Shown: piece by piece, positions 3,334-29,287 of the stretch | Layout: every line of letters begins with the position of its first letter | How positions within the stretch are numbered: position 1 is the stretch's first letter | Virus genome (UHGV): UHGV-0060833 | Direction: 5' to 3' (one strand) | Source of the DNA: a virus | Length of the DNA: 64,000 bases | Translations under genes and position numbers: made by a program | Notes under the pieces: model-generated | Told to the model about the DNA's origin: nothing | Database searches by the model: none | The model's input: the letters and a program-made list of their open reading frames with translations, nothing else

Positions 3334-4763
3334 TCCTCCTCATACGAAATATTAAAGGTGGAGTTTTCTGTATCCAGATAAACGAAATCGTAAAAGCCGT
3401 TGGACTCATTCCACTCGACAAATTCCAGATAAAAGTCGCGGAAATAACCCAGCGTTTCGATAAATGCCCAAACGTCTTTTTTCTTGATCAGGATGTACTT
3501 GCCGACACCGTTCGGATCAAAGAAATTTGAGTCGCGCCCAAATTTTGTTTCCAGCGCCGACTTCAGCTCATCAGTCACGTTCTCAATGGTCAGGCTTGCC
3601 GATATCCGCCCGGTGATGGTGATCTTAAAGGGTAGTTTTCTGACCTCTTTATACGAGAATTTCTTGTTCAACTCATTCGGCACCTTCTTAAAGGCAGCCA
3701 GGATCATTTCTTCAAGCTCTGACTGGCTTTTGTTTGGATGCCATCCTGAAATAAATATCTTATTGATATTCCGGACATTATAAGCACCATCTAATTTCTC
3801 TTGCTGGCCTTCGCCCCATGCCTTTACCCAGGACAGTCCCGGGATGTTACGCACCAGAAAATACGTATAGTCCCCGCCCCATACGACCTGATCATCATAG
3901 GCAAGGTAATATTGTGCACGATTACGTGTGATCTCCGTTGTTTCGGCATCGGTACCTGCGGTTATGGGTGTCGTTGTCTTAACTGAAATCAAATTAGCTA
4001 AATTAGCCGCAGAATCGACAGGCGTCAGATTTTGGCCAGCAACCAAGGTTATATCTCCGTTGGTGCACCATACCTTAAGTGTAATGGTCGAGCCTTCTGG
4101 CGGTATTTGCCCAATTAGCCCATCACCGAATCGAACCCCCAACTGCTCGGATGGTTTATAAAACTCAACGTAGACCTGGCTTTTACTACCGGCTAACCGG
4201 AACATAGTGCTGGAAGACCACTGCGTGGTCTTACCATCGGTCGTCACGAATACTTCCAGCTTATAGCAGACAGCAGTGAGAGCCTTTGATAACACGACTT
4301 CCAGAAATTCTTTGGCTGCCGTAACGGTATATGTCACCTCCTGGATTTCCAACTGTGCCACTTCTACCGTACCGGTGCCGTCAACCAACCTGCATACATC
4401 CATAGTCATGTAAGGGTACTGGTCGTCAGATATTAAAGGCATGTTTTTGGGGATTACCGCTGGGGCATCTTCACTTGTGGCGGTGATCTCAATCATCCCC
4501 GATGACGGTGTTGGCTTGGTACCAACGTAACTATTCGTTTCTGCCGCTGCCAAGATAGAGGAACGCCGCGTCGCGGTCGATATAAAGCCTTCAGCCAGCG
4601 CCGCATCGGCATACTGAAAGCACCTGTAGACAATCTGGGTAATAAACAATGTCAGCATCGAGACAAATTGAGAGCCGACAAACTTCGACCAGAATGAATC
4701 TTTCTCGACAAGCTCTTCAAACTCTGCACGAATACTGTCTTTAGTCGGTGTTGTTTTACTCAT
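3330..4763 (-). CDS. Baseplate protein (P1 BplA-like by position)
   Basis: 477-aa ORF; stop/start overlaps with both neighbours. Confidence 0.5.
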   Translation of the reverse strand: MSKTTPTKDSIRAEFEELVEKDSFWSKFVGSQFVSMLTLFITQIVYRCFQYADAALAEGFISTATRRSSILAAAETNSYVGTKPTPSSGMIEITATSEDAPAVIPKNMPLISDDQYPYMTMDVCRLVDGTGTVEVAQLEIQEVTYTVTAAKEFLEVVLSKALTAVCYKLEVFVTTDGKTTQWSSSTMFRLAGSKSQVYVEFYKPSEQLGVRFGDGLIGQIPPEGSTITLKVWCTNGDITLVAGQNLTPVDSAANLANLISVKTTTPITAGTDAETTEITRNRAQYYLAYDDQVVWGGDYTYFLVRNIPGLSWVKAWGEGQQEKLDGAYNVRNINKIFISGWHPNKSQSELEEMILAAFKKVPNELNKKFSYKEVRKLPFKITITGRISASLTIENVTDELKSALETKFGRDSNFFDPNGVGKYILIKKKDVWAFIETLGYFRDFYLEFVEWNESNGFYDFVYLDTENSTFNISYEEE

Positions 4764-11102: not shown

Positions 11103-11642
11103 CTACCACCAACTGCTAGCTTTCTTCTCTCTAGCTTTTCCTTCGCTTTGCAGTAAATCTTTACTTCCTGTAGAAATATTTCTATTTGCATCAGCCTCAG
11201 ACTGAATTACATCTGTCTTAGCTGCTCTCTCCTTCAACTCCTGCTCTATAAAATCGTTTTCTCGCTGGACACGAGCCGCTTTTGCTTGCAGTTCGAGTTT
11301 CATGCTTTCGAGTTGCAGCTTGCGAAGCTCATCCTCATAAGCTTGATCTCGCTTCTTGTCATTTGCTAGCTCGGCTTCTCGTTTCGCTCTACGTTCATTT
11401 TCTGCAGCAACACGCTGTTTTTCGCGTGCAGCAGCGGCAGATGCTGCTTTTTCTCTTCTAATACGTTCAGCTTGTGCTTGTTGGCGAATAAGTTCTTTTC
11501 TGGCATCCTCAGCTTGCTGCTCTTTAGCTCGCCCTTCATTTTCCGCTTGAGCAATAGCAGCAATTTGACTTTGCAACGAGTTAGCCAAGGCAGTGCCTAC
11601 ACTAAACGTAGAAAAGATTAGAAATAAAATAATTTTATTCAT
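11103..11642 (-). CDS. Secreted coiled-coil protein (signal peptide plus Ala/Glu/Arg/Lys-rich helix)
   Basis: 179 aa; N-terminus MNKIILFLIFSTFSVGTALA resembles a signal peptide; rest is highly charged and helical; AT-rich codon usage. Confidence 0.55.
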   Translation of the reverse strand: MNKIILFLIFSTFSVGTALANSLQSQIAAIAQAENEGRAKEQQAEDARKELIRQQAQAERIRREKAASAAAAREKQRVAAENERRAKREAELANDKKRDQAYEDELRKLQLESMKLELQAKAARVQRENDFIEQELKERAAKTDVIQSEADANRNISTGSKDLLQSEGKAREKKASSWW

Positions 11643-11645
11643 AAA

Positions 11646-12167
11646 TTATTTCTTTTCTGGACAAGTAGCATTTGGCTGAATTCGAGTTTCATTATCTTTA
11701 GTTGAAATAAGCACAGCAAGCCCCGTTGTAAACTGGCATGCTTTACCAACTTGAGTTGAAGTGAACACCTTAGTTCCTTCTTTATAAGTCAGTGAAACAC
11801 CTTCAACAATTGTTTTATCACTAACCAAAGAACCAGCCGCTGCACCAAGAGCCGCACCACCAGTACCGCCAGCTACAGCACCCAGTGTCGATGTGCCTTT
11901 AACATTATAACCGGCAACGCCCCCAGCAACAGCTCCCAGTACCGCACCAAATGTCTGTGCCGCTTCTTTATTAGCTTTATTATCAACTTTCACTTTAGCT
12001 GGAAGCACAGAGATAATATTGACTGTCTTTGTTTCCTGCTTCGAATTCAATTGAGCGGTATCATAAACATCGGCAGCATAATCAGCACCGCTAGATTGAC
12101 ACCCAGAAAGAAGAATTGCAGATACAACAAGAGCGCATAAAGTATACTTTTTAGACATAAGAATCAT
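11646..12167 (-). CDS. Lipoprotein with glycine-zipper segments
   Basis: 173 aa; lipobox LLSGC; GAVLGAVAGGVAG / GAVAGGTGGAALGAAAG glycine-zipper stretches; 3-nt gap to the downstream gene. Confidence 0.55.
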   Translation of the reverse strand: MILMSKKYTLCALVVSAILLSGCQSSGADYAADVYDTAQLNSKQETKTVNIISVLPAKVKVDNKANKEAAQTFGAVLGAVAGGVAGYNVKGTSTLGAVAGGTGGAALGAAAGSLVSDKTIVEGVSLTYKEGTKVFTSTQVGKACQFTTGLAVLISTKDNETRIQPNATCPEKK

Positions 12168-23109: not shown

Positions 23110-23300
23110 TTGTGTGAATCCCTTTTCGGAAGAGATTTTATTGAAAGTCACTTGTTGACTTTCTCGCGAAAAGTAATTTTTTAAATTTTTTTGTGCGGGG
23201 AGGAGAACGAGTAATACAGGCGTTAAATTGTGGGAATTTCAGCCTGAAATCTTTCATGAATATTTATATATATCATGCACTTATACATGAAATCGGCGCG
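23110..23300. other. Candidate partition centromere (parS-like region)
   Basis: Downstream of parB: heptamer-like ATTTCAG/TGAAATC repeats, a palindrome gaaagtca-cttgt-tgactttc, and TGAAATCGGCGCG resembling ParB box A plus a box B variant. Confidence 0.35.
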
Positions 23301-23349
23301 GGACATTTTAGGCAGAGGAGGAGGCTAAAACCACCTCCCACCAGCTGGA

Positions 23350-24315
23350 TTATTCCCCAGCAGACATTTTCCCAATGATTTTTTTTATTGCTTCGTCAAT
23401 TTCAGTTTGCACTTCAGACGGGAGTCTGGAGAACTCGTAGGCGACTACCCGTTTTTTCGGATCAGACTTCTTTCTGGCGTATTGACGACGGTCAGAGAAG
23501 TCTCGCAGCTTCTCAACCACCACAGATTTAACCGGCGCGGGCTTCAGGCTTTTGCTTTCCGCTTTGAAGATAGCCAGTATCTTCGCTTTATCCTCTTTCG
23601 CGCCCTCAGTCTCTGCAATTCGTTCGCGCACCGTATCAACCAGCTCTTCAATAGGTACGCTTTTAGCGTTGGCATCCTCGGAGATCTGGAGCAGTAACTG
23701 GTAATCTGGCAGGGCGAGATCGCTGGCAACAGGGAAGACAGCAATCATCTCATCCGGCACCGCTGCCGCCTGGAACGCGCGCGTAACTTTAGCCTTTGAA
23801 ATGTTCTCAGCGCGGGCGATCTCTTCTTTGGTCATGCTCTTACCATACATAACCTCGAAGCGTTTACCCAGTTCGCGCAGGGTGTGTTCGCGGGCTGTCT
23901 GGATATCAATGGCCAGCTGGCGTGCATCCGCCAGGCTGATCTCATCTTTCGTCACCAGAATCTCAAATTTCGTTTCATTAAAGATACACGCAGCGCGGCG
24001 ACGTGATCCGTCCAATACCTCAATGCGCTCCCCAACCATACGACCGATAGCCGGGAAGAACTGTTGCAATTTAATGGTGCGGGAAATATCGCTTACCGAC
24101 TCAGGGGTGAGCAGAGACTGATCGCGGCCGTTAACTGCCGGGTCAACGAACGTGCGCGACTCAATCTCACCACTCAGCACAACGGTAAGCAAAAATTTAG
24201 CCTGGCGGCCAGATTTTAGGGTAAAGGTTTTGGTGCCTTCACTGCCTTCAAGCATGCGAGCAAACTCGGAGCTATTCTTGCCCAGCACTCGTCCACGGGA
24301 AACTATTTTTTTCAT
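23350..24315 (-). CDS. parB: ParB partition protein
   Basis: 321-aa ORF immediately downstream of parA with a 4-nt overlap. Confidence 0.8.
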   Translation of the reverse strand: MKKIVSRGRVLGKNSSEFARMLEGSEGTKTFTLKSGRQAKFLLTVVLSGEIESRTFVDPAVNGRDQSLLTPESVSDISRTIKLQQFFPAIGRMVGERIEVLDGSRRRAACIFNETKFEILVTKDEISLADARQLAIDIQTAREHTLRELGKRFEVMYGKSMTKEEIARAENISKAKVTRAFQAAAVPDEMIAVFPVASDLALPDYQLLLQISEDANAKSVPIEELVDTVRERIAETEGAKEDKAKILAIFKAESKSLKPAPVKSVVVEKLRDFSDRRQYARKKSDPKKRVVAYEFSRLPSEVQTEIDEAIKKIIGKMSAGE

Positions 24316-25523
24316 GCCGCCTCACCCCTAACAAACTCAATTCGATCAAACACAGCCTTAGTGAAACGCTCGGCCTCGGTTCGTGCCTTCTTCAGCGCCT
24401 CTGCGCTGCCTGGATACGATTGCGGGTTGGCACTGATTACGGTGTCGAAAGACTCGCCGCATCGCTCAAATCCATCCAGACGAGGCAGAGAAGAGTCCAG
24501 AATGTTGCTGGCGTAAACCTCACGCGCAAGGCTGTGTGATGTCTCGTGATCGCGCTTGCCGGTCATCTTCGACATAAAACCAATGCTGGCGCTTAAACGC
24601 GGTTCTACGCCTTCCTCCTCCAGTTGCTCCAGCATTTCTGGCAGACGGGTGAGATATTTCAGTGTTGAGTGGAAGTCAACCTGGGCTGGTGGGGTAGGGG
24701 TAAGCAGCAAATCGCTGGCCGCCAGACCGTTGAGCAGGAACGGATCCAGGTGTGGACCGGTATCAATAAAGATAAAGTCATAATCATCCGCAACACGATC
24801 AATGATATTGCGTCGAAGGATTTCGTACTGATTTTGTCCGGGAAGATGCTCTTCAACCAGCTCTTTCCATTGGCTGGCAACAAAGCCATCGTCGATAGAG
24901 GCTGGAATCACGTCTACGCCAGGAACGATGGTCGGACGAATCACCTCTTTGCGTAGCGTCTCCGCGTCCAGGTCGTTCAGCATCGCCTGCGCAGCGGTTT
25001 CCAGGATGGAACCAATACTGTGAGTATGGTCGAGGAACATTGTGCTGGATGCCTGAGGGTCAAGGTCAATTACCAGAATACGCAGATCGTGACGCAGTAA
25101 ATCCTGATGCACACGCAGAGCGTGCGCCAACGTGACTGTGGAAACCGTTTTGGATACGCCACCCTTCAGGTTTACGACAAAAATAACGTAAGGCGATTTG
25201 TGAATGTCGCGATATTTTGGGATCTTACGGTGGGCATAGATATCAATGACGTTCTGGATGGTCAGCGCGTACTGTTCAACGTTACCGACCTGTTTCTTGT
25301 TGAACTGGTACCCATTATCTTCCATCTCTTTGATGGCCTGCTCCACAATGCGGCGGCTCAGCTTCGGCAACTTTGCCACAGCGTTACGAGTGAACGTCTG
25401 ATAATACTCGGTCTGATTGAACTCTTTGCGCTGATCTTCAATATCCTGACTCATGGCCTTAAGTAATGCGCTTGCACGAAGAGCTATGGTGCCGACACCG
25501 CCGTAATCGCGTTTCATCATCAT
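24312..25523 (-). CDS. parA: ParA partition ATPase
   Basis: 403 aa; deviant Walker A NLKGGVSKTVSTVTLAH. Confidence 0.85.
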   Translation of the reverse strand: MMMKRDYGGVGTIALRASALLKAMSQDIEDQRKEFNQTEYYQTFTRNAVAKLPKLSRRIVEQAIKEMEDNGYQFNKKQVGNVEQYALTIQNVIDIYAHRKIPKYRDIHKSPYVIFVVNLKGGVSKTVSTVTLAHALRVHQDLLRHDLRILVIDLDPQASSTMFLDHTHSIGSILETAAQAMLNDLDAETLRKEVIRPTIVPGVDVIPASIDDGFVASQWKELVEEHLPGQNQYEILRRNIIDRVADDYDFIFIDTGPHLDPFLLNGLAASDLLLTPTPPAQVDFHSTLKYLTRLPEMLEQLEEEGVEPRLSASIGFMSKMTGKRDHETSHSLAREVYASNILDSSLPRLDGFERCGESFDTVISANPQSYPGSAEALKKARTEAERFTKAVFDRIEFVRGEAA

Positions 25524-25631
25524 CTCCTTATCATTTCGTATGAGTGAATTGTACGTTTGATTCTGCTACGTGCAACTTATTTTGATTTGTGCGTAAATTA
25601 TTGCACGTAAAAAATGGCGATGAGGCTATTA

Positions 25632-25915
25632 GATGTGTGCTGGAGGGATGATGCAGGACCAGAATGTGCGATAGAGGGAAGTCGCATTGAATTATGTGTT
25701 GTGGAGGGATCGCTGGTATCAAATATGTGCGCTGAAGGGAAAGATAGAAGATTAGATGTGCGCTGGAGGGAAACTTGGATGGTTAGATGTGTGCTGGAGG
25801 GAATGTCTGGGCAAACTGCGTGGCGCAACCCTCCAGCGCACACCAAAAACAGGAAAATGGGCAGGCATTCCCGGCAGCGCACATTTTTCAAATGCAGCTG
25901 CCCTCCAGCACACAC
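25632..25915. repeat. incA iteron array: 9 RepA-binding iterons
   Basis: Six forward copies of (G)ATGTGYGCTGGAGGGA at ~31-bp spacing (25632, 25663, 25694, 25724, 25755, 25786) and three inverted copies (25829, 25868, 25901). Confidence 0.85.
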
Positions 25916-27056: not shown

Positions 27057-27093
27057 AAAAACCGGCCAACATAGCCGGTTGGAAGGAAGGGTA

Positions 27094-27486
27094 TTATTCT
27101 ACGCTTTCGATAAGAAGACCATGTTCATAACATTTAAGCTCATCGCCTTCGTACAGGAATTGGTATCCAATACCACCATTTTCATGGACATTAGGGAATA
27201 ACTCATAACTCACTGAAGAGCAAATCACACCAATGCAGCGATCAACGCCTTCTCGTCCTTCAGTGCTGAAAAAATCCTCTTCGGTAAGAACATGAGTACA
27301 TTGCTCATCAGCATAGGTCGGAAATACATGCTCGATGCAATCCGGGTGTTTTAAACCAAGCTGATCGGCAAGCTCGAAAGCATGACGGTATTGTTCAGAT
27401 CCTGGCTTGCCAACAGTGATGTGCTCAATTTTGTAGATTGAAGTCGCTTTGTTGATAGTTTGCTTTACTGTTACTTTATCAGACAT
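27094..27486 (-). CDS. Hypothetical protein
   Basis: 130-aa ORF, last gene of a minus-strand operon. Confidence 0.45.
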   Translation of the reverse strand: MSDKVTVKQTINKATSIYKIEHITVGKPGSEQYRHAFELADQLGLKHPDCIEHVFPTYADEQCTHVLTEEDFFSTEGREGVDRCIGVICSSVSYELFPNVHENGGIGYQFLYEGDELKCYEHGLLIESVE

Positions 27487-27497
27487 AAAAATCCCTT

Positions 27498-27830
27498 TTA
27501 GTTACCTCTGATAGCGCGGTTGTAATCATTAACGTTGCGATTCTTCCTGTTAATCCCCATCAGCATCGTTTCTGTATCGAGGATATACGCTGGCAGATCA
27601 TCAAAATATTCACTGCTAAACTCTGGCATCCTGCACATAAATGCACTTTTGGGGGCAGGGTGGTTAACCTTTGTCGGCGTCGGCGTTAAATTCGGTGATC
27701 GACTGCCGGAGCAACCGCTGAGTGTCAGCAGGAATGCGCTGGCGAACATTACCCGCCGCAACCAGTTGTTTCTGAACTTCAGCTTTTCGTTCCATTTGCC
27801 TGTCAGCATATTTGGCTTGTTCTGATTCAT
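27498..27830 (-). CDS. o-spanin-like outer-membrane lipoprotein
   Basis: Lipobox LTLSGC and Pro-rich segment PNLTPTPTKVNHPAPK; starts inside the upstream gene in another frame (start may be the internal Met at 27749). Confidence 0.45.
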   Translation of the reverse strand: MNQNKPNMLTGKWNEKLKFRNNWLRRVMFASAFLLTLSGCSGSRSPNLTPTPTKVNHPAPKSAFMCRMPEFSSEYFDDLPAYILDTETMLMGINRKNRNVNDYNRAIRGN

Positions 27831-28086
27831 TTTTCACTTCCTGGCTGTGAAAATGTTGCTCTGCTTTGTTCATCGTCTCAATGGTCTGGTTAAGATCCAT
27901 TATTGACTTATCACGTTCCTTAACAGCCTGATCAAGACTGCCAATTTTCTCCATGGCTTGCTTTAGCTGATGACGTTCCCATGCAAACCCAGCACCAACA
28001 AGTGTGCAAATCAGAACAAGAACACCAGTAGCAGCAAGTTTCTCCTTCAAAGACAAAGCTGTTTTTAACGTAGAAAAGAATGACAT
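27664..28086 (-). CDS. i-spanin-like membrane-anchored coiled-coil protein
   Basis: Strong ribosome-binding site (aggagg) before ATG 28086; N-terminal transmembrane segment ATGVLVLICTLVGAGFAW, then a charged helical region. Confidence 0.45.
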   Translation of the reverse strand: MSFFSTLKTALSLKEKLAATGVLVLICTLVGAGFAWERHQLKQAMEKIGSLDQAVKERDKSIMDLNQTIETMNKAEQHFHSQEVKNESEQAKYADRQMERKAEVQKQLVAAGNVRQRIPADTQRLLRQSITEFNADADKG

Positions 28087-28125
28087 GTCTTCCTCCTGAA
28101 GAAAAATTATCAATGAAGTCCTTTG

Positions 28126-28914
28126 TTACTGTGCCGCTTTGTTTAATTCATCAAGAACAGAATCAGGAACCAAAGCGGCAACTGCGCTGGCTGTGCTGAC
28201 CTTATTTGCTGATGCTTCCGCAAGCGCGGTACCGATAGCATGGTTATAAGCAGTTATGGCTACGTTGGCGCTTTCATTCGCTCGTTCATACTGCTGTTGT
28301 AACGCAGTTGTGGGCGCTGTTGTCTGGTTGAAAACAACCCCAAACTGTTCAGTTGCTACTTTCAGAGATTCAATTTGCTCTTCTGTTAGTGCTGGTGGGG
28401 GAGTGGCAGTGCCGCCGCCTGAACCAGAGCCTGACGAGCTTCCTGAGCCAGTGTTAAGGGTCTGGTTAATCTCCCCCATAGCAGCGACTAAACTTGATGT
28501 ATTAAGCGCGTTAACAGCGTCCTCAAGCGATTTAGTAATATTCACATCACCAATGGCAATAGAGATCGGCAGTTCTGAAACTTCTCGCTCATTAGCACGG
28601 CAGTAAACATCCCAACCAATATCGAGTTGAAGCAGCATTGACAGATCTGCATAACCAGCCAACAGGTCCGCGTGCTTAGTTGCCAGTTCTCCAATGTTCG
28701 TTAAGCCAGTTGTGGTTGTTCTGATCGTTGAAACATAGCTGGTAATAGTGTCGGGATAGACAATTGTATCCAGAATTAATCCGGTCAATTCTTCTGCAAG
28801 CAGTTTTGCTGTGTTAGCACTGTTTCGTGCCGATGTTATGGCACCAGGTGTTTTCATCCCACCGGCGGCGGCCAATTTTTTATATGCGGATAACTGGTAG
28901 TCTTTTTCCAGCAT
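28126..28914 (-). CDS. Hypothetical protein with Gly/Ser-rich linker
   Basis: Start set at ATG 28914 (aggag 8 nt upstream); contains SGSSSGSGSGGG linker. Confidence 0.45.
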   Translation of the reverse strand: MLEKDYQLSAYKKLAAAGGMKTPGAITSARNSANTAKLLAEELTGLILDTIVYPDTITSYVSTIRTTTTGLTNIGELATKHADLLAGYADLSMLLQLDIGWDVYCRANEREVSELPISIAIGDVNITKSLEDAVNALNTSSLVAAMGEINQTLNTGSGSSSGSGSGGGTATPPPALTEEQIESLKVATEQFGVVFNQTTAPTTALQQQYERANESANVAITAYNHAIGTALAEASANKVSTASAVAALVPDSVLDELNKAAQ

Positions 28915-28922
28915 GATATCTC

Positions 28923-29207
28923 CTAACTTACCTGAACCAGGCCGTCTCCGGACGCTACGGTAGATCCGCATGAAACAGGGTCACCAACGCATACGATCCC
29001 TTTACCATTGACGGTAAACCATGCCCTGGTTGATATAGCTTGCCCACCGTGCGTACTGTTTCCATCGGTATGCTGTGCATATTGCTTACCATCAACTAAC
29101 ACTTCGACTCCGTTGACTTTAAGTAGTGGTTCACTCTCTACAGGAGGCCTGGATGGGAATCCTCCGTGCCCCGAACAAATGCTGTCTTTTGTTGCAATAC
29201 TTGCCAC
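28923..29207 (-). CDS. Small PAAR-like protein (tentative)
   Basis: 94 aa with C.GHGG, HGG and VCVGDPVSCG motifs reminiscent of PAAR repeats. Confidence 0.35.
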   Translation of the reverse strand: MASIATKDSICSGHGGFPSRPPVESEPLLKVNGVEVLVDGKQYAQHTDGNSTHGGQAISTRAWFTVNGKGIVCVGDPVSCGSTVASGDGLVQVS

Positions 29208-29287
29208 GTCATCACCAATTATTTGCTCTGGTTTTCGTTATTTTAACTTAGGTTACTTGTGGTCTACATGGTGTTAACTATTAAATA

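Follow-up and report, generated by a model that had tools for sequence, protein, structure and literature searches.

An overlapped gene pair in a P1-type phage, ppfA/mlp, predicted to encode a two-component spanin at a distance from the holin and endolysin genes

Could two overlapping open reading frames (ORFs) that lie far from any recognizable holin or endolysin gene be the spanin genes of a phage? The question is raised by positions 27498 to 28086 (minus strand) of a stretch of UHGV virus genome UHGV-0060833 (all 64,000 nucleotides [nt] of it are referred to here as the window), where an original prediction, made from the sequence letters, had proposed a pair of overlapping genes resembling those for an inner membrane spanin (i-spanin) plus its outer membrane counterpart (o-spanin). 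Both ORFs are present at these coordinates, and with high confidence we read them as the ppfA/mlp pair of a P1-type temperate myophage, predicted to encode a two-component spanin of overlapped architecture in which PpfA is the i-spanin and Mlp the o-spanin. The proposed reading agrees with the assignment already published for P1, with all the sequence-level traits expected of each component, with the labels of the PHROG profiles that match the two proteins, and with homology between Mlp and the P2 protein LysC, and it stands as a prediction.

The identity of the locus follows from its sequence and its position. The window belongs to a P1-type phage (95 to 98% nucleotide identity). Over the 2 kb around ppfA/mlp, its identity to P1, to P7, and to further P1-like phages is 95.5 to 99%, and the whole window is colinear with P1, starting at ∼35.9 kb on that map, crossing the map end, and stopping at ∼2.4 kb. 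The gene order repA-upfA-mlp-ppfA-upfB-upfC is that of P1, with repA/oriR and upfA downstream of the pair and upfB and upfC upstream; the high identity together with this conserved position between repA/oriR and upfB-upfC places the two genes in the P1 ppfA/mlp orthologous group, which comprises those of Punavirus and P1-like plasmid prophages. The orthologs in P1 and P7, ppfA (gp064) and mlp (gp063), encode products with 97% (PpfA) and 96% (Mlp) amino acid identity to those in the window, and the lengths, starts, ribosome-binding sites, 167-nt overlap, and flanking genes (repA-upfA and upfB-upfC) are identical. Going from the window to P1, PpfA differs by four substitutions (T28A, M45I, Q128E, and T131S) and Mlp by another four (N7S, A32V, P46A, and R108S), all of which spare the lipobox and Cys66 of Mlp and the invariant positions of PpfA.

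By the criteria of Summer et al. (2007) and Kongari et al. (2018), PpfA has the makeup of an i-spanin, which is a small type II inner membrane protein with one N-terminal transmembrane domain (TMD) and a mostly alpha-helical periplasmic domain. The N-terminal transmembrane segment originally described for the longer ORF was recovered at residues 17 to 35 (Table 1), and the part of the protein predicted to be periplasmic comprises 105 residues, of which 34% are charged (18 acidic and 18 basic) and none is cysteine. An AlphaFold2 model built from a 13-sequence alignment, with a modest predicted local distance difference test score (pLDDT) of 67, contains a helix at residues 13 to 110 that would form the TMD and a periplasmic rod, a break at residues 111 to 119, and a further helix at residues 120 to 137. 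Hydrophobic periodicity at the a and d positions of the heptad between residues 37 and 110 is moderately above that of shuffled sequences (P of ∼0.01 to 0.04). Of the charged coiled-coil periplasmic domain that had been described, the charge and the helix were thus borne out, and a coiled coil is plausible rather than proven. The program-made ORF list begins ppfA earlier, at a TTG codon at position 28113 that has no Shine-Dalgarno sequence.

Mlp in turn has the makeup of an o-spanin, a small outer membrane lipoprotein with a lipobox, a cysteine as the first residue of the mature form, and no aspartate at position +2. The lipobox LTLSGC had been recognized from the outset; its cysteine, Cys40, is preceded by L-S-G and is kept in all relatives. 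Residue +2 is a serine, and the Lol-avoidance aspartate is therefore absent; given the lipoprotein signal, Cys40, and this serine, Mlp is predicted to be lipidated and then to reach the outer membrane's inner leaflet through the Lol system. The mature protein would begin CSGSRSPNLTPTPTKVNHPAPKS, a Pro/Thr-rich start with 5 prolines in the first 25 residues, so the Pro-rich segment that had been reported is real but modest (7 of 71 residues overall). Beyond the lipobox, Cys66 supplies the at least one periplasmic cysteine that a homotypic intermolecular disulfide calls for, and because the periplasmic part of PpfA lacks cysteine, a bond through Cys66 would be the sole homotypic disulfide possible in the pair. 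In an AlphaFold2 model of Mlp, of low confidence (pLDDT of 55), the signal peptide forms a helix, the Pro-rich stretch is unstructured, and short helices lie toward the C terminus.

Spanin genes may be embedded, overlapped, or separated, and those in the window are overlapped, with the o-spanin gene downstream. As the original prediction had it, the shorter ORF starts inside the longer one in another frame (+1) and extends past its end, continuing for 166 nt beyond the ppfA stop codon. We examined the same locus in three relatives whose PpfA proteins are 58 to 62% identical, namely, Cronobacter phage JK004 (L006), a Salmonella contig (L007), and a Klebsiella-type contig (L008); in a large protein collection, PpfA homologs with identities down to 58% were all in P1-type elements (∼90 to 100 kb, from Escherichia coli, Salmonella, Cronobacter, and Klebsiella). 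The +1 mlp frame is open for 109 to 110 codons in all three relatives, its ATG lies within one codon of that in P1, and its Shine-Dalgarno sequence stays inside the PpfA codons for Q-E-V-K, where JK004 keeps it as AGGAGGTG. The Mlp proteins of these relatives retain the h-region LASAFLLTL, the lipobox cysteine, the stretch LTPTP, the second cysteine in FMCRMPE, and a C-terminal block, SEYFDDLPAYILDTETML..INRKNRNVN.YN. The nonoverlapping mature part of Mlp is 75 to 80% identical across these lineages, which is above the value for the entire PpfA protein. In the overlap, conservation is 65 to 75% for the PpfA frame and 32 to 36% for the n-region of Mlp, and low conservation of the latter is expected if it serves merely as the basic n-region of a signal peptide. 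Taken together, these patterns point to purifying selection on both frames, and the overlap is more than a product of chance. The mlp orthologs are nonetheless miscalled in public data: in JK004 (4260 to 4592) a 44-residue fragment is annotated (gene_24), in the Salmonella contig (∼3260 to 3589) the call is 52 residues long, and in the Klebsiella-type contig (∼3260 to 3589) the gene is uncalled.

Two further observations concern the N terminus of PpfA. Residues 1 to 16 (28039 to 28086; MSFFSTLKTALSLKEKL), predicted to be cytoplasmic, are 81 to 88% conserved in relatives whose TMD is 21 to 32% identical, whereas lambda Rz has almost no cytoplasmic segment; the conservation suggests that this terminus may take part in a specific interaction at the cytoplasmic face or act as a membrane insertion signal. 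In addition, an E. coli assembly (GCA_902825495.1; L010, a 4.6-kb contig, positions 59 to 481) contains a PpfA variant of 82% identity in which the first ∼23 residues are exchanged for unrelated sequence, with loss of the cytoplasmic segment and half of the TMD, next to an intact mlp; this variant is probably the result of a rearrangement or an insertion junction.

The closest affinity of the pair outside the P1-type elements is with the overlapped spanins of P2. Both proteins are called "Rz-like spanin" by PHROG profiles, PpfA through phrog_89 (E = 5.9e-25) and Mlp through phrog_30284 (1e-75) and phrog_456 (3.3e-5). Both P2 proteins are strong members of the families concerned, LysB of phrog_89 (5.8e-61) and LysC of phrog_456 (1.7e-31), and LysC also has a weak match to Mlp's own family. 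A BLASTP comparison of Mlp and LysC gave an E value of 4e-7 (35% over 68 residues, Mlp residues 24 to 90), in an alignment that takes in the TPTP stretch as well as the signal peptide and the cysteine of a C-x-M-P motif, with Mlp Cys66 opposite the LysC cysteine; a GenBank note on P1 mlp gives the same span and describes mlp as "possibly involved in regulation of lysis (by homology)." The P2 genes also form an overlapped pair of similar size (141 and 96 amino acids in P2), and they too directly adjoin tail genes, lying upstream of R and S. They differ from the P1 pair in forming the distal end of a canonical cassette, whereas ppfA/mlp are unlinked to one; because lysB and lysC come directly after holin Y, endolysin K, and lysA, P2 supplies the association with a lysis cassette that is absent in P1. 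A search for distant homologs inside lysis cassettes (tblastn and a word-indexed protein search) found P1-type elements only.

The resemblance to lambda Rz/Rz1 is one of predicted topology, with a type II inner membrane protein that has a helical periplasmic domain and a hinge, paired with an outer membrane lipoprotein in the +1 frame that has a Pro-rich segment and a periplasmic cysteine. The differences are considerable. Rz1 is fully embedded in Rz, whereas mlp is overlapped; lambda Rz has two periplasmic cysteines and periplasmic PpfA has none; mature Mlp has 71 residues and a conserved C-terminal block, compared to ∼40 residues in Rz1; and Rz/Rz1 close the S-R-Rz cassette. The lambda genes belong to PHROG families (phrog_13 and phrog_3198) unlike those of PpfA and Mlp, the only common matches being weak ones to phrog_739, phrog_214, and phrog_456. 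For spanin genes remote from holin and endolysin genes, a precedent exists in T4 pseT.3/pseT.2 (Kongari et al. 2018, PMC6139136, Fig. 8 legend), which we liken to the P1 pair by gene placement and which differ from it in their separated, nonoverlapping architecture.

The spanin assignment of ppfA/mlp is already known and catalogued, likewise as a prediction. According to Bednarek et al. (2022, PMC9025707), who cite Summer et al. (2007) for this point, the two genes were identified from predicted features as the P1 equivalents of Rz/Rz1; Bednarek et al. also report that the P1 spanin genes ppfA and mlp partly overlap and that their operon is unlinked to the other lysis genes. In the Introduction of their paper, the o-spanin label goes to ppfA and the i-spanin label to mlp; judged by the predicted TMD and helical rod of PpfA and the lipobox of Mlp, these labels are swapped. 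P1 (NC_005856.1) is also entered as "ovl" in Additional files 2 and 6 of Kongari et al. (2018, PMC6139136), where the i-spanin is gp064, the o-spanin is gp063, and the family is named "P1"; the ribosome-binding sites and starts given there for P1 are those we read in the window, and the count of periplasmic cysteines in the i-spanin is 0, with "one in TMD." In several GenBank records the two genes carry the names Rz and Rz1, and mlp is an "Rz-like spanin" in RefSeq.

The remoteness from lysis genes that the original prediction had remarked upon is a known peculiarity of P1; for spanin genes, late expression as the distal part of a lysis cassette is usual but not required. No holin or endolysin homologs were found in the 64-kb window by tblastn with six P1 proteins (those of lyz and lydA to lydE). 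On the P1 map, lyz, lydD, and lydE are located at 20.0 to 20.9 kb, lydA, lydB, and lydC at 30.4 to 31.5 kb, and mlp/ppfA at 63.4 to 63.9 kb, a separation of 32 to 43 kb. Directly upstream of ppfA are instead two virion genes in the same orientation (Table 1), whose products are both baseplate components: UpfC is a PAAR-like spike tip, and UpfB is a trimeric "tripod" that sits on UpfC (2026 cryo-electron microscopy study, PMC12810830). We found no terminator-like sites between upfC, upfB, ppfA, mlp, and upfA, and we infer from the arrangement that these five genes are transcribed together, as one unit that includes late structural genes. Because they are probably cotranscribed with the baseplate genes upfC and upfB, ppfA and mlp would probably be made late. 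The position of upfA is taken by a Phage_gp49_66-family gene in the Salmonella element (3600 to 3953), and the gene is absent in the Klebsiella-type element (3424 to 3977); since upfA is replaced or absent in relatives, its involvement in the spanin function is unlikely. We scanned for late promoters with a position weight matrix built from 7 annotated P1 late promoters, in which true late promoters score 18.8 to 24.4 bits. A late-promoter-like motif, AAGTAACCT-aagt-TAAAAT, at 29240 to 29258 (minus strand), lies 33 nt upstream of where upfC begins (29207), a good position from which to drive upfC-upfB-ppfA-mlp-upfA; it scored 14.3 bits and ranked 8th best in the window. About 0.75 such matches per window are expected by chance, the P1 reference scored 9.7 bits, and JK004 has none, and we do not claim this motif as a P1 late promoter for the operon.

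Table 1. Features of the ppfA/mlp locus and its neighbors (positions are those of the window)
Feature	Position	Strand	Description
mlp, predicted o-spanin	27498..27830	-	110-aa (amino acid) lipoprotein precursor, 71-aa mature form; ATG 27830, TAA 27498; +1 frame of ppfA
Shine-Dalgarno sequence of mlp	27835..27842	-	AGGAAGTG; inside the ppfA codons for Q-E-V-K; given as AGGA for P1 gp063 in Kongari et al. 2018
Mlp lipobox codons, L37-S38-G39-C40	27711..27722	-	Cys40 is the predicted lipidated first mature residue
Mlp Cys66 codon	27633..27635	-	Motif FMCRMPE; the pair's only periplasmic Cys apart from the lipobox; candidate for a homotypic disulfide; invariant in all lineages
Dual-coding overlap	27664..27830	-	167 nt; last 55 ppfA codons and first 55 mlp codons (signal peptide and 15 mature residues)
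ppfA, predicted i-spanin	27664..28086	-	140 aa; ATG 28086, TAA 27664; short conserved cytoplasmic N terminus, one TMD, helical periplasmic domain
Shine-Dalgarno sequence of ppfA	28092..28097	-	AGGAGG; 6 nt upstream of ATG; same ribosome-binding site for P1 gp064 in Kongari et al. 2018
PpfA transmembrane-segment codons, residues 17-35	27982..28038	-	Hydrophobic core LAATGVLVLICTLVGAGFA; mean Kyte-Doolittle 2.2; single segment
PpfA helix break/hinge codons, A111-P119	27730..27756	-	Includes invariant G112 and P119; from alignment and AlphaFold2 model
upfC	28923..29207	-	PAAR-like spike tip; co-oriented, upstream of ppfA
upfB	28126..28971	-	Baseplate "tripod"; co-oriented, 39-nt gap to ppfA
upfA	27094..27486	-	Function unassigned; closes the gene string, 11 nt downstream of mlp
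Intrinsic-terminator-like hairpin and T-run	27060..27080	-	Just after upfA; likely end of the transcription unit

Elsewhere, the backbone of the window is a mosaic compared to P1, with P7-type parAB genes and a non-P1 module in place of sim. The partition region at 23200 to 25700 (the parA/parB/parS side) is 98.6% identical to P7, and megablast and blastn gave no alignment to P1 across 23253 to 25629; this P7-type region, together with the P1-like surroundings of ppfA/mlp, therefore marks the window as a P1/P7-type mosaic that carries the P7 partition/incompatibility module. Where P1 has the simABC superimmunity genes, the window has a two-gene module (11103 to 12167, minus strand) that it shares with SJ46, phi456, and further P1-like phages at 99.7 to 99.9%. 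The first gene encodes a 173-residue lipoprotein with the lipobox LLSGC, a glycine-zipper region, and a weak, subthreshold TraT-like match, and the product of the second, 179 residues long, combines a hydrophobic segment at the N terminus with a DUF5384 domain (3e-43) that is charged and helical. We considered this membrane protein/lipoprotein pair as a rival candidate for the spanin and rejected it: its matches are the weak TraT/glycine-zipper one and DUF5384, with no signal from a spanin family, its gene order is reversed, and its genes do not overlap. It is probably an exclusion or envelope module. The PHROG label "DNA methyltransferase" on phrog_1277, the family of the 173-residue lipoprotein, looks like an annotation error.

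Several results weigh against the spanin assignment of ppfA/mlp. At the level of protein families, PpfA has no significant similarity to P2 LysB (BLASTP E = 62; hhalign with a 13-sequence PpfA profile, E = 0.04 and a probability of 1.3%), and we rejected direct homology between the two, the link resting solely on the broad phrog_89 profile, which may itself include P1-type sequences. The equivalog cutoffs of NCBIfam were not reached, either for LysB (TIGR03495, 18.2 versus 92.75 bits) or for LysC (NF038368, 12.8 versus 27), no Pfam spanin domain was detected at an E value of ≤0.1, and the similarity to lambda Rz/Rz1 is insignificant (BLASTP E = 0.26 and 0.042). Since neither BLASTP nor Pfam gave a significant match, membership in the lambda Rz/Rz1 family (Pfam Phage_lysis and Rz1; phrog_13 and phrog_3198) was rejected as well. 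From these profile and BLASTP results, PpfA and Mlp appear to be distant relatives, and not equivalogs, of P2 LysB and LysC, and only analogs of the lambda proteins. The lipoprotein signal of Mlp is also irregular: the original prediction had suggested signal-peptide and lipobox prediction as a check, and while the lipobox L-S-G-C is present, a signal peptide of 39 residues, counted from the conserved ATG, is overlong for a standard PROSITE-like lipoprotein pattern, and two relative lineages have asparagine at lipobox position −2 (LNGC and LNAC), outside the usual consensus. Late expression, for its part, comes with no convincing promoter, the motif upstream of upfC being at chance level and not conserved.

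The functional record points the same way. The spanin function of ppfA/mlp is stated to be experimentally unverified (PMC9025707). In a genome-wide CRISPR interference (CRISPRi) screen plated with 5 mM Ca2+ and 5 mM Mg2+, ppfA (efficiencies of plating of 1.3/1.2) and mlp (0.24/0.19) were nonessential for plaques, as were upfB and upfC, whereas knockdown of lambda Rz had an essential phenotype in the same study (5e-4/0.15). These data weaken but do not overturn the spanin assignment, because the strength of the operon knockdown is not established, upfB and upfC are also nonessential, and spanin phenotypes are conditional. It seems unlikely, on balance, that PpfA/Mlp are not required for outer membrane disruption in P1, or are not the only route to it. 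If that were true, it would explain why plaques are intact upon knockdown on Ca2+/Mg2+ plates, unlike for lambda Rz; the complex lysis system of P1 (Lyz and LydA to LydE) would then bypass spanins, or the pair would have taken on another envelope role tied to its location next to the plasmid replicon and the operon for the spike tip.

In one alternative, ppfA/mlp would form an envelope module expressed by the prophage from sigma-70 promoters beside the plasmid replicon and serving, for example, surface or superinfection exclusion, serum resistance, or another form of lysogenic conversion rather than lysis. Phage lipoproteins with roles outside lysis do exist, lambda Bor among them, and a TraT-like lipoprotein is encoded elsewhere in the window. 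The P1 record has only predicted sigma-70 promoters (P1ppfA and P2ppfA) upstream of the pair, with no late promoter, the genes adjoin repA/oriR far from the lysis genes, and CRISPRi knockdown caused no strong plaque defect where lambda Rz was essential. A type II inner membrane protein with a helical rod, combined with an overlapping +1-frame, Pro-rich outer membrane lipoprotein that has a conserved cysteine, is, however, the signature of a spanin; moreover, Mlp is homologous to LysC, a protein of a lysis cassette, no terminator separates the pair from the two co-oriented virion structural genes that it directly follows, and both the catalogue of Kongari et al. (PMC6139136) and PMC9025707 name these genes as the spanin genes of P1. 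We therefore consider a nonlytic envelope module decidedly unlikely. Still less credible, in our view, is a role outside lysis in which the pair would assist UpfC and UpfB during infection or the assembly of virions, for example by serving the membrane-piercing apparatus as envelope factors. The apparent transcription unit is common to all four genes, and UpfC and UpfB do form the tail tip "membrane-piercing apparatus" (PMC12810830), but both export signals, the TMD anchor of PpfA and the lipoprotein signal of Mlp, place the products in the envelope of the producing cell, whereas tail assembly is cytoplasmic, and ppfA and mlp receive zero mentions among the virion proteins of the cryo-electron microscopy study (PMC12810830). 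Linkage to tail genes is in any case not evidence of a tail function, because P2, too, has its tail genes R and S directly downstream of lysB/lysC.

A different kind of doubt is whether mlp is a gene at all rather than an open frame that arose by chance in and after ppfA. Gene callers often miss or shorten it, as in the three relatives described above, and full-length Mlp entries are few in protein databases. Conservation effectively refutes this, however: the frame stays open for 109 to 110 codons in four lineages with ∼60% PpfA identity, with its start, Shine-Dalgarno sequence, and lipobox cysteine conserved; the nonoverlapping mature part is better kept than PpfA; and Mlp is significantly similar to P2 LysC. 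We give the chance-frame explanation next to no credence.

As a two-component spanin, ppfA/mlp would be expected to act as follows. Cotranscription with the upstream genes upfC and upfB would probably lead to synthesis late in infection. By analogy with lambda and distant homology with P2, PpfA would have its anchor in the inner membrane, Mlp would be tethered to the outer membrane at its inner leaflet, and their C-terminal parts may bind each other across the periplasm, threading the peptidoglycan meshwork in the manner of lambda Rz/Rz1 and P2 LysB/LysC. Mlp may dimerize through a homotypic intermolecular disulfide at Cys66. Once the signal-anchor-release endolysin Lyz, under the control of the LydA/LydB holin-antiholin pair, degrades the murein, the spanin complexes would be freed; they could then oligomerize and change conformation, so that the inner and outer membranes would be fused or disrupted and lysis completed.

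The spanin assignment in P1 dates from 2007, and the sole functional data on it come from the CRISPRi screen, with no strong phenotype, a minor gap in what is known about a model phage. The locus also illustrates that an overlapped spanin pair can be recognized from raw sequence. Otherwise, the finding matters mainly for correct annotation: automatic gene callers and several GenBank records still overlook or shorten the overlapping mlp frame, which in P1-type phages is predicted to encode the outer membrane partner of PpfA.

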